64,000 bases of DNA from an uncultured Gemmatimonadales bacterium (lineage in GTDB: Bacteria > Gemmatimonadota > Gemmatimonadetes > Gemmatimonadales > GWC2-71-9): the NCBI GenBank assembly GCA_963730185.1, contig CAVSQW010000015.1, forward strand, positions 544,001-608,000. The letters are read 5' to 3'. Position 1 is the first letter of the stretch, and every line of letters starts with the position of its first letter. The notes under the pieces were generated by a model. The model was not told the origin of the DNA and made no database searches. It saw nothing but the letters and a program-made list of their open reading frames with translations. Positions 50,135 through 54,571 of the stretch are shown here, one piece after another. Position numbers and translations under genes: made by a program.

Positions 50135-50755
50135 ATGCGCAATATCGCCGAGAACACCGTCCGCCGCCTCTCCCTCTACTTGCGATTCCTCGAGGAATTC
50201 GAGCATGAGGGGGCGGCGACGGTCAGCTCCGGGGCCCTGGCGGCCCGGGGCGGCACCACCTCGGCGCAGGTTCGGAAGGACCTCTCGTTCTTCGGATCGT
50301 TCGGCAAACGGGGCCTGGGGTATTCGGTTCCGCAGCTGATCACCCGGCTCCGGGAGATTCTGGGTCTCGGGCGCCGGTACCAGGTGATCGTGATCGGGGC
50401 AGGCAAGATCGGGAGCGCGTTGAGCCAGTACCAGGGTTTCGCGGACCGAGGCTTCGACATCGTGGGAATCTTCGATCGCGACCCGGCCAAGATCGGAATG
50501 ACGTGGGGCGGGCTCGAGGTGCGCGACGTGGCCGATCTCGACCTGAACTGCGGCGACCTCCATCCGGACATCGCGGTGATCGTGACCTCGGGCGACGGCG
50601 CCCAACCGGTGGCCGACCGCGCGGTGGCCTGCGGGGTGACCGCCATCCTCAACTTCGCCCCGGTGCAGCTCCACGTGCCGGCGACGGTGACGGTCAAGAA
50701 CGTGAACCTGGTGCTGGAGCTCGAGGCGCTCAGTTTTGCGCTCGCCAACAAGTGA
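50135..50755 (+). CDS. rex: Redox-sensing transcriptional repressor Rex
   Basis: TVRRLSLYLR.L, QVRKDLS.FG.FGKRG.GY, IGAGKIG, ILNFAP. Confidence 0.97.
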   Translation: MRNIAENTVRRLSLYLRFLEEFEHEGAATVSSGALAARGGTTSAQVRKDLSFFGSFGKRGLGYSVPQLITRLREILGLGRRYQVIVIGAGKIGSALSQYQGFADRGFDIVGIFDRDPAKIGMTWGGLEVRDVADLDLNCGDLHPDIAVIVTSGDGAQPVADRAVACGVTAILNFAPVQLHVPATVTVKNVNLVLELEALSFALANK

Positions 50756-50811
50756 TTGGGGACGACCCAGCCACCTAGTCCCAGCCTTCGTCCCGACATA
50801 TAGTTGGATCC

Positions 50812-51144
50812 ATGAGTTCACGTCGTCGGCGGCAGCGACGGACCGGATGGCTCGCCCTGGTCATGTATCTGGGCGCGGCGATCGTGCTGCCGTTGCTCCA
50901 TGCCGAAGACGAGGTCCTCTGGAGCCAGCCGAGCTACGAGGCGCACCATACGGATGGTTGTCGCGTCATCCATTCGGAAGCCGGTTGCCCCACCCACCAT
51001 CACTATGCCAATCCCGAGCTGGCCGCGCGCCGGCTCGTGTCGCTTGCCGGACCGGTGGTCCAGGTTCCGGCGCCCGCCACCGACCACCCGGTCGGGGCGC
51101 TCCTCGTCCTTCTCCTTCGTACCCGCGCGCCTCCCATCGCCTGA
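50812..51144 (+). CDS. His/Cys-rich secretory leader protein ending in RAPP (DUF2946/CutF/CruR-like)
   Basis: Basic N-terminus plus hydrophobic segment, HHTDGC-RVI-H-SEAG-CPTHHH, Pro-rich spacer, ...RTRAPPIA-stop. TATAGT lies 7 nt before the ATG. Confidence 0.75.
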   Translation: MSSRRRRQRRTGWLALVMYLGAAIVLPLLHAEDEVLWSQPSYEAHHTDGCRVIHSEAGCPTHHHYANPELAARRLVSLAGPVVQVPAPATDHPVGALLVLLLRTRAPPIA

Positions 51145-51247
51145 CGGTCTGAGTCGCGAGCGGTGAGGGTGGACGCCGGCCGTGGCCGGCGGCCGCTCGC
51201 TCTCCGTTCGCTCATCTCGTCATCATCAGCCCTGAGGAGGAGCAGAG

Positions 51248-52513
51248 ATGCGCGGTCTCACCGCGATCTGCTTCGCGCTGGCCGTGGGAGCCGCCGGGAT
51301 GCCGGCGGTAGCCCGGGCCCAGACACCGGAGCAACGCGCCGATTCGTTGGCGCGAGACCTCGCGCGTCTCAAGGCGCGCATCGATTCCCTGGAACGCACC
51401 GTGGCCGGGCTGCGGGGCCCGTCGCGGGATACGGCCCCAGCCGCCGACGAGCTCACGGCGCTCCGGGCGGCCGCGGCCGCGGCCGCCCCCACCGACACCA
51501 CCAAGCGCGAAGAGCGGACCTTCGTGAGCCGGACCCGGAGTCAGCCGCAGCTCAATCCCGAGATCAGCGCCACCGGCGACGTGCGTTTCGTCGCCCGGCA
51601 GCCGGGGCCGCAGCAGGACAACGTCGACGTCCGGGAGTTCGAGTTCGCGTTGCAGTCGCCCCTCGATCCCTTCTCGAGCACCAAGATCTTCCTGTCGTGG
51701 GAGGGCGGGCACGTCGACGTGGAGGAGGGCTACGCCTACTGGACCGGGCTACCGGGGCACCTTCGTCTCGACGTCGGCCGCTTCCGCCAACAGGTCGGCG
51801 AGCTCAACCGGTGGCACCTCCACGCGCTGCCCGAGTCCGAGTACCCGCTGGTGATCACCGAGTACCTGGGGGAGGACGGCCTGGTGGGCGATGGCCTGAG
51901 CCTCTACTGGCTGGCGCCCTCCACCGGGAAGGCGCTCGGCACCCACGAGCTCTACGGCCAGGTGACGCTGGCCAACAGTGACGCTCTCTTCGACGGGGGC
52001 CACCGGCTGGCCGTCAACGGGCACTTCCTGAATTTCTGGCAGCTCTCGCCCAGCACCTTTCTTCAGGTCGGCGCCTCGGGGCTCTACGGTCGGAACCCCG
52101 ATGCCGATCTCTCGACCACGCTCTACGGGGCCGAGTTCCGGCTCTCGTGGCGGCCGCCCAGTCGGGCGCTCTACCGGTCGTTCACCCTCCGGGGCGAAGG
52201 CTTCCGGGTCAGGCAGAAGGTCGCCGGGGTCGGCGACCCGCACCACGGCGGCTACCTCGGCGCCGACTGGCAGGTGAGCCGGCGCCTTCATCTGGGCACC
52301 CGCTTCGACTGGGTCGAGCCCCGGATCGGCGGCGACGCGATCTGGGCGGTGGTGCCGCATCTCACCTGGTGGCAAAGCGAGTGGGTGTATCTCCAGGCCG
52401 AGTGGGAACACCGCGCCACGCCCAGCCCCGACCTCGACGCCCGCCTCACGACCAACCGCCTCCTGCTCCGCGCGGTCTGGTCGATCGGTCCCCATAAACA
52501 CGAGAACTACTGA
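51248..52513 (+). CDS. Outer-membrane beta-barrel (porin-like) putative metal-uptake protein
   Basis: Signal peptide, coiled coil, NPEIS, E.E.ALQSPLDPF, VEEGY, LNRWHLH, C-terminal IGPHKHENY. SD GAGGAGGAG. Confidence 0.8.
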   Translation: MRGLTAICFALAVGAAGMPAVARAQTPEQRADSLARDLARLKARIDSLERTVAGLRGPSRDTAPAADELTALRAAAAAAAPTDTTKREERTFVSRTRSQPQLNPEISATGDVRFVARQPGPQQDNVDVREFEFALQSPLDPFSSTKIFLSWEGGHVDVEEGYAYWTGLPGHLRLDVGRFRQQVGELNRWHLHALPESEYPLVITEYLGEDGLVGDGLSLYWLAPSTGKALGTHELYGQVTLANSDALFDGGHRLAVNGHFLNFWQLSPSTFLQVGASGLYGRNPDADLSTTLYGAEFRLSWRPPSRALYRSFTLRGEGFRVRQKVAGVGDPHHGGYLGADWQVSRRLHLGTRFDWVEPRIGGDAIWAVVPHLTWWQSEWVYLQAEWEHRATPSPDLDARLTTNRLLLRAVWSIGPHKHENY

Positions 52514-53568
52514 TGACCACGATCCTGATCCTGCTCCTGGCCTCCGTGCCGTCGCCCGTCGCGGCCGCGCCGCCGGTCCCACCGCCCGCCGCCGAGCTCC
52601 GGGTGGTCACCTCGCTCTCGACCTACGCCGCCATCGCCAGGGAGCTGGTGGGCGACAAGGGCACCGTGGTCTCGATCGGCCAGGGCGACGAGAACCCCCA
52701 CTACGTCCAGCCCCGGCCCAGCTTTGCGCTCGAGCTCCGGCGGGCCGACCTCTTCGTCTCGACCGGGCTCGACCTCGAGCTGTGGGTCCCGGCCCTGCTC
52801 GACAAGGCCAACAACCCGAAGGTGAGCGACGGCGGCCCCGGGCAGGTGACCGCGTACACCGGGGTGCGTCTGCTGGACATCCCGACCTCGACCAGCCGGG
52901 CGGAGGGCGACATCCACGCCTTCGGGAATCCGCACATCTGGGCCGATCCGATCAACGCGATCGTGATCGGCCAGAACATCACCACCGGGCTTGCCCGAGT
53001 GGCCCCGGGCGACGCCCGGTACTTCAAGGACCGGTTCACGGCCTGGCGGAGCCGGGTGCTCCAGGCCCTGGTCGGCGAGCCGATCGTCAAGCTCCTCGGC
53101 GAGGACGCCGTCTTCAGCCTGCTGGACCAGGGCAAGTTCTGGAACTTCGTTCAGAACCAGCAGTACCAGGGGGCGCCGCTGATCGAGCAGCTCGGCGGTT
53201 GGCTCAAGAAGGGCGAGGTCTTCCGAGGGAAGGAAATGGTCTGCTATCACAAGGAGTGGGACTACTTCTCCCGGCGGTTCGACATTCCCTGCATCGATTT
53301 CATCGAGCCCAAGCCGGGGATCCCGCCGTCGCCGGGGCACGTCGCCAAGCTGATCGCGGAGATCCGCGACCGCCATATCCCGGTGATCTTCGCGGCCAAC
53401 TTCTACGATCCCCGGCAGGCCAAGGTGATCGCCCAGCGGACCGGCTCCACGGCCGTGATCGTCCCGGCCAACGCGGCCGGGGCGCCGGGGACGGACACCT
53501 ACATCGGACTCGTCAACTTGTGGGTCGACCAACTCGCCGCCGGCTTCGCCCGGCAGGGCGGGGACTGA
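52513..53568 (+). CDS. Metal ABC substrate-binding protein (ZnuA/TroA cluster A-I)
   Basis: ENPHY, GLDLE.W, GNPHIWADP, YHKEWDYF, EPKPGIPPSP.H. Confidence 0.92.
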   Translation: MTTILILLLASVPSPVAAAPPVPPPAAELRVVTSLSTYAAIARELVGDKGTVVSIGQGDENPHYVQPRPSFALELRRADLFVSTGLDLELWVPALLDKANNPKVSDGGPGQVTAYTGVRLLDIPTSTSRAEGDIHAFGNPHIWADPINAIVIGQNITTGLARVAPGDARYFKDRFTAWRSRVLQALVGEPIVKLLGEDAVFSLLDQGKFWNFVQNQQYQGAPLIEQLGGWLKKGEVFRGKEMVCYHKEWDYFSRRFDIPCIDFIEPKPGIPPSPGHVAKLIAEIRDRHIPVIFAANFYDPRQAKVIAQRTGSTAVIVPANAAGAPGTDTYIGLVNLWVDQLAAGFARQGGD

Positions 53569-53588
53569 GCCAACCGAGGAGCAGATCC

Positions 53589-54410
53589 ATGCTCGAATTG
53601 ATCCTGCCGCCGTTCGTCGCCTGTCTCGTCCTGGTGTCGATCCTGGCCTACCTCGGCGTCCACGTGATCGCGCGCGAAGTGATCTTCGTCGACCTCTCGC
53701 TCGCCCAGATGGCGGCGCTCGGCAGCACCACGGCGCTGCTGTTCGGGATCGAGGGCGGGAGCCCGGGCGCCTACGGCTTCGCCCTGGCCTTCACGGTGGT
53801 GGGCGCCGCGATCTTCGCCGCCACCCGGTCCAACAAGAAGTCCCAGCGGGTGCCCCACGAGGCGATCATCGGCATCGTCTACGTGGTGGCGTCGGCGGCC
53901 ACGCTGCTGGTGGCCGACAAAGCCCCGCAGGGGGCCGAGGCAGTGAAGGAGCTCCTGGTGGGCGCGATCCTCTGGGTCACCTGGCCCCAGATCCTCCGAC
54001 TGGTCGTGGTGTTCTCGATCGTGGGGCTGGTCCACTGGCTCCTCCGCGATCGGTTCCTCGCCATCTCGTTCCACGAGGAGGAGGCCGAGGCGCGCGGTTG
54101 GCGGGTCCGGTGGTGGGACTTCGTCTTCTACCTCACCTTCGGCGTGGCCATCACCCTGGCCGTGCCGGTGGCGGGCGTGCTGCTGGTGTTCTCGTTCCTG
54201 GTCGTGCCGGCGGTGGTGGCGTTCCTGTTCACCACCAACATCCGGAAGCTGGCCCTGGCCAGCTGGGCCGCCGGCGCCCTGGCCTCGGCCGTCGGCCTCG
54301 GTCTCTCGTTCAAGTACGACCTCCCGACCGGGCCGCTGATCGTGTGCGGCTTCGGGGCGCTGCTGGTGCTGGCCGGGGCGGTGAGACGGGTTGTGACTCG
54401 TGAGTTGTGA
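53589..54410 (+). CDS. Metal ABC permease (ZnuB/ABC-3 family)
   Basis: YLGVHV..R.VIFVDLSLAQMAALG, EAIIG..Y, LLVG.IL.V, GVLLVFSFLVVPA, DLPTGP.IV. SD GAGGAG before ATG 53589. Confidence 0.92.
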   Translation: MLELILPPFVACLVLVSILAYLGVHVIAREVIFVDLSLAQMAALGSTTALLFGIEGGSPGAYGFALAFTVVGAAIFAATRSNKKSQRVPHEAIIGIVYVVASAATLLVADKAPQGAEAVKELLVGAILWVTWPQILRLVVVFSIVGLVHWLLRDRFLAISFHEEEAEARGWRVRWWDFVFYLTFGVAITLAVPVAGVLLVFSFLVVPAVVAFLFTTNIRKLALASWAAGALASAVGLGLSFKYDLPTGPLIVCGFGALLVLAGAVRRVVTREL

Positions 54411-54554
54411 GTGGCGACTAGGGAGGGAGTGGTGAGGAGGGAGTAGGGGTGCGCCGGACGCCACTCACTACTCCCGCCTGGTCGGGGTGCCGGCCGCGCC
54501 CTACTCACGACTCACGACTCCCTCCCTACTCCCTATTCCCAACTCCCTAGTCCC
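54393..54554. repeat. Imperfect 56-bp inverted repeat built from heptamers (GAGTxGx / xCxACTC)
   Basis: 54393-54448 matches the reverse complement of 54499-54554 at 44/56 positions without gaps, with a spacer of about 50 nt. Confidence 0.85.
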
Positions 54555-54571
54555 TACCATTAACTTCCGTC

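Follow-up and report, generated by a model that had tools for sequence, protein, structure and literature searches.

The window analyzed here, a 64,000-nucleotide stretch of contig CAVSQW010000015.1 from an uncultured Gemmatimonadales bacterium, contains a 110-residue open reading frame (ORF; P0001), hereafter the leader, followed on the same strand by a cassette of three genes for an outer-membrane porin-like protein, a solute-binding protein (SBP), and an ABC permease. The N-terminus of the leader resembles an export signal; a core with His, Cys, and Glu residues follows, and a terminal Arg-Ala-Pro-Pro (RAPP) motif closes the peptide. This anatomy is conserved in related loci, with a fixed spacing of 46–49 residues from the core to the motif. 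Here, we propose that it is a CruR-type switch that senses a metal through its nascent chain. It is very likely a functional arrest leader and likely also metal-responsive; to the full model, in which a metal (zinc) releases the stall and masking of the porin Shine–Dalgarno (SD) sequence is the output, we assign a probability of about 0.5. An earlier note on this DNA had described the ORF with its TATAGT hexamer, His/Cys cluster, and RAPP codons and had placed the cassette about 100 nt downstream; all of these were confirmed (the distance is 103 nt). The features of the leader are as follows.

50799..50804, + strand: TATAGT, a −10-like hexamer 7 nt 5′ of the leader ATG (sequence)
50812..51144, + strand: leader ORF (P0001), 110 aa (sequence, translation, and homologue alignment)
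50812..50904, + strand: leader N-terminus, basic then hydrophobic, a predicted Sec export signal (sequence and AlphaFold2 helix)
50938..50988, + strand: leader core E43-x2-H46-x3-C50-x3-H54-x4-C59, a predicted metal site (alignment of 150 homologues)
51124..51135, + strand: RAPP codons (the leader ends in R-A-P-P-I-A-stop)

The Pro-Pro of the motif corresponds to residues 107–108, and the leader carries the string H-H-T-D-G-C-x3-H-x4-C-P-T-H-H-H. The assignment of the export signal is based on a hydropathy filter and a predicted helix, and cleavage would occur after ...LHA. In the AlphaFold2 model, only residues 2–34 form a confident helix, the predicted confidence score (pLDDT) is 55–70 past residue 40, and no folded mature domain is predicted. 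Scans of the Pfam and NCBIfam libraries gave no match for the leader. Within this genome, a hydrophobic segment plus a terminal R[AG]PP occurs in six frames, compared with 4–10 for each of six control tetrapeptides, so that one copy proves little; it is the conservation across related loci that places the leader above chance.

Among 61 close relatives, 33 had a porin match, as did 174 of 401 genomes of the phylum. The sample for the leader comprised 198 loci, namely the best porin matches listed and 60 regions chosen for other families, and is not a random one; 181 loci were left once exact duplicates were removed, and 166 were evaluable, having at least 600 nt upstream of the porin. A first pattern detected a leader in 143 of 164 evaluable loci and in seven on the reverse strand. 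The refined pattern, with a hydrophobicity filter, a better choice of start, and RSPP, which was admitted after being seen in the data, detected an R[AGS]PP leader before the porin–SBP–permease cassette in 150 of 166 loci, as opposed to 0 of 166 on the reverse strand; a terminal RAPP ahead of homologous cassettes was what the earlier note had suggested looking for. Among the 16 loci missed, two do show a leader by inspection, two have one on the opposite strand, and at least five are leaderless. The RAPP leaders at L177:706-1050 and L179:657-1073 (oriented coordinates) are upstream of the porin but on the opposite strand, and they point away from it. In the leaderless cassettes L014, L016, L037, L148, and L151, a −10-like hexamer is visible by eye shortly 5′ of the porin start.

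The homologues have a median length of 111 aa and a median spacer to the porin of 90 nt, and the leader always comes first in the operon. Named homologues belong to Gemmatimonadota, and the names that homologue searches gave were nearly all "hypothetical." The terminal motif is RAPP in 129, RGPP in 15, and RSPP in 6 of the 150 leaders; its Arg and both Pro residues are invariant by selection of the loci, but the core residues and the C59-to-Arg distance are independent of that selection. The RAPP codons differ at synonymous sites among homologues. E43 is conserved in 136/150, H46 in 103/150, C50 in 115/150, H54 in 140/150, and C59 in 149/150, and across 89 clusters of <50% identity, E43 is kept in 76, H54 in 79, and C59 in 88. 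Two or more Cys residues are present in the core of 138 leaders and a single one in 12. The distance from C59 to the Arg is 46–49 residues in 143/150 (mode 48; 46 in the present copy), and this spacer is fixed in length and free in sequence. The conservation of His and Cys that the earlier note proposed to examine thus holds for H46, C50, H54, and C59, as well as E43, but not for CxxH/HHH. Its suggestion that CxxC is replaced by CxxH within a His-rich cluster was not supported as the defining change, since position 62 is Cys in 87/150 and His in 1/150, this copy alone, and CxxH/HHH was likewise rejected as a zinc signature (1/150 homologues). The second Cys of CxxC is missing in 63/150 porin leaders. 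A profile built from the porin leaders matched 2577 representatives at E ≤ 0.001; an R[AGS]PP end was found in 139 of the best 150 and CxxH anywhere in five of them.

The reading of the leader as CruR- or CutF-like, already put forward in the earlier note, gained support from this conservation and from the Cys-to-RAPP spacing. In CruR (Bp2923, DUF2946/PF11162) of Bordetella pertussis, Cys90 is located 49 residues before Arg139, and the copper effect was strongly reduced when five residues were added to the spacer (PMC9426467); the arrest was demonstrated by toeprint (PMC12992588). The leader shares with CruR its position as first gene of an uptake operon, a predicted export signal, the long spacer, the C-rich stretch, the terminal RAPP, and an expected ON state upon stalling; the homologues mostly have a Cys 46–49 residues before the motif, and the present copy, at 46, is three residues short of CruR. 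Unlike CruR, the present copy has C-P-T-H in place of CxxC and extra upstream Glu, His, and Cys ligands, and the search against the DUF2946 profile that the earlier note had recommended (PF11162, cut-off 23.7 bits) gave no match at E ≤ 10. DUF2946 matches at E ≤ 0.1 were obtained for 21/150 homologues, and of 26 that were scanned individually, one scored above the cut-off (24.0 bits). The target of CruR is a copper TonB receptor, whereas that of the leader is the porin–ZnuA–ZnuB cassette and not copper-related genes; the CruR mRNA has a 45-nt 5′ leader, whereas the mRNA here is likely leaderless, with SD masking by the Pro-Pro codons predicted. The leader thus appears to work like CruR and CutF, yet by these tests the present copy is not a DUF2946 member.

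The leader also passes the filter for CutF-like proteins of PMC9973294 in its length (<150 aa), its Pro-Pro in the last 15 residues, and its same-strand neighbor within 1000 nt, here 103 nt; the signal peptide that the filter requires as well is predicted for the leader. As in CutF of Rhodobacter capsulatus, the output would proceed via an unmasked ribosome-binding site (PMC9973294; bioRxiv 10.1101/2025.02.05.636593). In CutF, however, copper increases the stall and induces a detoxifying oxidase, and the motif is a proline repeat, not RAPP. The opposite sign is expected here because the target is an importer. ApdA, ApdP, and SecM share the RAPP-type motif and the export signal predicted for the leader, but they stand before sec or yidC genes, which the leader locus does not, and a conserved metal core is not in their description in the parts of PMC12992588 covered.

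Concerning the transcript, the promoter scan found no sigma-70 −35/−10 pair at the leader locus, and the sequence scan found no AT-rich palindrome at the promoter, in agreement with the earlier note, which had seen no Zur/Fur-like palindrome there and favored post-transcriptional control; this is the likely mode. TAnnnT occurs 5–9 nt before an in-frame start in 75/150 leaders and in 0, 3, and 2 of 150 in the controls, and an SD-like word precedes the leader in 28/150 loci and the porin in 121/150. These two features suggest that the leader transcript is likely leaderless, with transcription starting at the ATG. The remaining RNA elements are as follows.

51099..51105, + strand: second pyrimidine-rich anti-SD stretch of this locus, which pairs with the SD at P ~0.6 under footprint block
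51145..51247, + strand: spacer, 103 nt, a long GC-rich hairpin predicted to bring the stall site beside the SD (RNA folds)
51234..51242, + strand: porin Shine–Dalgarno sequence, GAGGAGGAG (sequence)

In the RNA folds, the Pro-Pro codons CCT CCC (51130-34) pair with the SD (51236-40) at P 0.85–0.91 and are predicted to double as an anti-SD. The fold energy of the spacer was not better than that of shuffles (z −0.88). Opening the SD costs 11.7 kcal/mol in the free mRNA. Without the leader the cost drops to 7.7, and with the ribosome footprint alone blocked it drops to 10.4; this last gain is small because the second anti-SD stretch takes over the pairing. Of the 143 loci folded (seven with long spacers were excluded), 77 showed a decrease of ≥2 kcal in the opening energy of the start region when the footprint was at the stall site, and 13 did so when it was 40 nt upstream. 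In 84 non-redundant loci, native duplexes of the RAPP region with the SD were better than cross-locus pairs (z −5.5; upstream control, z −1.7), although these comparisons are predictions for genomes that are related to one another, and their z-scores treat the loci as more independent than they are. The native duplex beats synonymous recoding in 57 of the 84 (control, 45), and in the first 60 of the 84, accessibility increases once the 5′ boundary has moved beyond the Pro-Pro codons. The first Pro codon of the motif is CCT in 64/150 leaders, compared with 246/3257 Pro codons of the porin genes. The predicted pairing and its co-variation with the SD favor the stalled state as ON.

The same region is rich in C. 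In the stretch reaching 30 nt to either side of the Arg codon, C is 48% and G 23%, and in the last 42 nt the excess of C over G goes beyond the synonymous expectation in 134/150 leaders (controls, 78 and 60). This stretch ends near the leader stop, C − G being 0.06 over the next 30 nt. Because the C-richness exceeds the coding need and Rho is present in this genome, Rho-dependent termination may add to SD masking; the terminator scan found no intrinsic terminator at the leader locus.

The cassette that the leader precedes consists of the following genes.

51248..52513, + strand: outer-membrane porin-like protein, 421 aa (AlphaFold2, Foldseek, and homologue clusters)
52513..53568, + strand: cluster A-I SBP (Pfam ZnuA, 153 bits; cut-off 29)
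53589..54410, + strand: ABC-3 (ZnuB-type) permease (Pfam ABC-3, 120 bits; cut-off 20.1)

The cluster A-I target named in the earlier note was upheld by the two Pfam scores, and judged by these families the cassette is a predicted cluster A-I ABC importer. Cluster A-I sites with three His residues and without a fourth Asp fit the Zn type rather than the Mn type. The three-His site of the SBP comprises H63, H141, and H246, and H135 and H276 are invariant too; the His residues are conserved in 162–163 of 163 SBPs, and no Asp is conserved at the position of the fourth ligand. The porin ATG (51248) is 103 nt past the leader stop. Its AlphaFold2 model (mean pLDDT 86.5) has N-terminal helices, 16 strands as counted, and no plug, and the Foldseek matches were porins, among them OprP, Omp32, and chitoporin (TM 0.52–0.54); a sequence search of the Protein Data Bank gave nothing significant. 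The porin is homologous to the Vibrio protein annotated as "zinc-regulated TonB-dependent receptor" (omr), and its Atlas cluster bears the same name. A TonB-dependent receptor consists of a plug domain and a 22-strand barrel. That identity was rejected for the porin on the basis of the 16 strands, the porin structural matches, and the lack of a Pfam plug or barrel match. H190-x-H192 (51815-51823), which is invariant, and the C-terminal H-K-H (52493-52501) are candidate metal-binding sites, and the Vibrio homologue has His at the places matching both.

No ATPase gene is present in the cassette here, in the main clade, or in the Vibrio campbellii and Sulfurovum stretches fetched; one accompanies the cassette in a distant clade (L175 and L181, Pfam). 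The best ATPase match of this genome, which is 82% complete, sits in another ABC operon. The fourth gene of locus L147 encodes a ZIP transporter. Contig C7 carries a distant ZnuA/ZnuB pair in low-GC DNA, which was set aside; at C7:715000-758262, GC falls from ~69% to 32–36%, and this DNA is likely foreign or mis-binned. Upstream of the leader, the gene at 50135-50755 (+), which we take to encode a Rex-type redox repressor (Pfam Put_DNA-bind_N and CoA_binding), ends 56 nt before it; the genes in this position vary among relatives. An imperfect purine-rich/pyrimidine-rich inverted repeat lies between the permease and an arginine-deiminase-like gene (54400-54560).

The sensed metal is probably zinc, by analogy with Vibrio. 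Among the 25 plasmid-collection matches listed, the two with the best E-values are from Sulfurovum and V. campbellii, both with the same three genes, and the V. campbellii porin is homologous to that of the window (HMM E 1e-44; HH probability 97%). The V. campbellii cassette has no leader but two perfect TGTTAT-N3-ATAACA palindromes just upstream, 6-3-6 repeats that we take to be Zur-like. Zur thus appears to control in Vibrio the same genes that the leader heads in Gemmatimonadota, and this substitution points to zinc. The palindromes resemble the Escherichia coli motif quoted in PMC6103462. In Vibrio parahaemolyticus, the transcripts of omr, znuAII, and znuBII increase 1034-, 543-, and 283-fold when zinc is limiting (Table 1 of PMC9817125); the cluster is named in V. 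campbellii too, and the role of its SBP in growth is minor (PMC9817125). From the gene order and that naming, the V. campbellii locus (L249) would be the same cluster. The V. campbellii cassette thus shares the three-gene organization without an ATPase and the homologous porin and SBP and differs in having Zur-like palindromes and no leader. No match to the V. campbellii palindrome above 10/12 was found in the 150 leader loci, although a Gemmatimonadota Zur box may differ. Two Fur-family proteins in this 82% complete genome match PerR and Fur better than Zur. In Sulfurovum mangrovi (L248:1759-2115, +), an ORF rich in His and with a CxxC stands first in the cassette; its end is HAPP, not RAPP, and it does not match the leader profile.

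Here, we propose the following mechanism based on these comparisons. Transcription would start at the leader ATG, and during translation the signal would engage SecY, with the core near the periplasmic exit. A shortage of metal in the periplasm, probably of zinc, would make the ribosome stall at RAPP with the Pro-Pro codons in the P site (51130-32) and A site (51133-35), as in CruR and other RAPP peptides. The stalled ribosome would cover the codons that otherwise pair with the SD, leaving the ribosome-binding site of the porin free, and also a C-rich stretch able to load Rho. Metal binding would fold the core and pull the chain free, releasing the stall and turning the operon off.

Several points weigh against this model, of which the stall, the metal binding, and the effect on expression are predictions. 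One concerns the paralogues. The leader profile matches 54/61 genomes, and 40 of 45 non-porin copies were fetched and combined with the paralogue of this genome, 38 of them having a usable neighbor. Efflux operons are headed by 15/38 (14 by the Pfam OEP family, one by context) and TonB-type receptors by 23/38 (15 by a Pfam/NCBIfam domain, 8 by size only), and one of the receptors is followed by CopC. Because the same family heads resistance-nodulation-division (RND) efflux and TonB-receptor operons, the motif alone does not name the metal, and exporters would need an output opposite to that of importers, as CruR and CutF give. Arrest depends on the host, since of seven Streptomyces RAPP/RGPP peptides tried with E. 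coli ribosomes, six gave poor stalling (PMC12992588). The loci are related by descent and not independent, and at least five hold the cassette without a leader. As to the RNA, 66/143 loci gain <2 kcal from the footprint, the second anti-SD limits the gain here unless upstream mRNA is covered too, and Pro codons are inherently C-rich, with genome GC co-varying between both sites. The incompleteness of the genome (82%) and the possibly different look of a Gemmatimonadota Zur box also reduce the weight of the comparison with Zur.

The paralogues have further features. All three target classes are metal-transport-like, and sec or yidC is not among them. For the receptors with NCBIfam matches, ZnuD was best in 9/11, all far below the cut-off. 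H46 and C50 occur in 103 and 115 of 150 porin leaders and in 2 and 2 of 15 efflux leaders, as retrieved with the porin-derived profile. The co-variation with the SD is borderline in the efflux leaders (z −1.6, n = 15) and present before the TonB receptors (z −3.6, n = 23); starts were picked automatically. In this genome, a second leader (H-D-x3-CxxC, RAPP; C15:89748-90134, −) lies 56 nt before an outer-membrane efflux gene, which is accompanied by genes for an adaptor and an RND pump; the pump gene is CzcA/CusA-like by eye and apparently split by a frameshift.

The same stalling switch could respond to Cu, Ni, Co, Cd, or several metals instead of zinc, which we regard as unlikely. CxxC in 87/150 homologues, DUF2946 matches in 21/150, the two additional invariant His residues of the SBP, and paralogues before CzcB/NccB-like efflux genes and a CopC-linked TonB receptor are in line with such a ligand, as is CruR, largely copper-specific (PMC9426467). 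The homology of the cassette to the Vibrio zinc-limitation cluster argues for zinc, however, as do the His, not Glu, as third SBP ligand, the 63/150 leaders that lack the second Cys of CxxC, and the preference of H46 and C50 for porin leaders over efflux leaders, with the caveat that the profile came from the former. It is quite unlikely that the metal-released stall acts mainly through Rho-dependent termination in the spacer, as in CruR, with SD masking secondary: the C content around the Arg codon, the C − G excess in 134/150, the presence of Rho, and the lack of an intrinsic terminator would suit that output, but the C-rich tract stops close to the end of the leader ORF, and a locus-specific complementarity to the SD is not required for Rho loading.

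Two further explanations dispense with metal sensing. A leader monitoring export capacity or periplasmic disulfide formation, like SecM or ApdP or through a C50–C59 disulfide, would account for targets that are all exported proteins and for the two or more core Cys residues in 138/150, but in 12/150 the core has just one Cys, conservation is as high for Glu and His as for Cys, and the target classes are metal-transport-like, with neither sec nor yidC among them; this is very unlikely. The occurrence of the cassette without a leader in several loci could indicate a constitutive stall, that is, fixed translational coupling, or a small secreted metal chaperone without a regulatory role. That either holds is highly improbable, given a spacer fixed in length and free in sequence, the lack of a predicted folded mature domain, and the invariable first position in the operon. 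We retain the zinc-released stall with SD masking as the preferred model. A broader version, in which a phylum-wide zinc-sensing arrest peptide replaces Zur here, with a leaderless mRNA, stall codons serving as anti-SD, a five-ligand periplasmic site, and paralogues that turn importers off and exporters on, is possible but doubtful.

The novelty of non-copper sensing was overstated in the earlier note, as His-only CutF-like leaders before HupE/UreJ had already been proposed as Ni/Co sensors (PMC9973294). RAPP leaders before zinc-annotated genes occur in the source data of the RAPP upstream-ORF survey PMC12992588; its main text contains neither "zinc" nor "Gemmatimonad," and its rows in the parts covered give no ligand, RNA switch, or Zur comparison, while the rest may list this family. 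ZnuA and Gemmatimonad terms were not found in the CruR and CutF supplements searched, the CutF neighbor list probably lying outside these. The literature searches listed no publication that describes a bacterial arrest peptide sensing zinc or leaders of this type in Gemmatimonadota, although subscription journals or unexamined supplements could hold one. DUF2607 proteins (Vibrio ZrgD, of a zinc-limitation operon) are also leaders with His and Cys residues; they precede DUF2796/ZrgA and have RAPP at their end. PMC9817125 lists ZrgD as a protein whose function is unknown.

In the literature found, nascent-chain metal sensing is shown for copper only (CruR and CutF), and other metals are proposed. 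The leader family provides a case in which zinc sensing can be tested, and nature supplies the control, the cassette being under Zur-like boxes in Vibrio and under the leader in Gemmatimonadota; its short RNA switch is amenable to compensatory mutations. Such leader genes lack a Pfam name and are easy to overlook. The matching paralogues for uptake and efflux that one genome carries may reveal how one scaffold yields opposite outputs.

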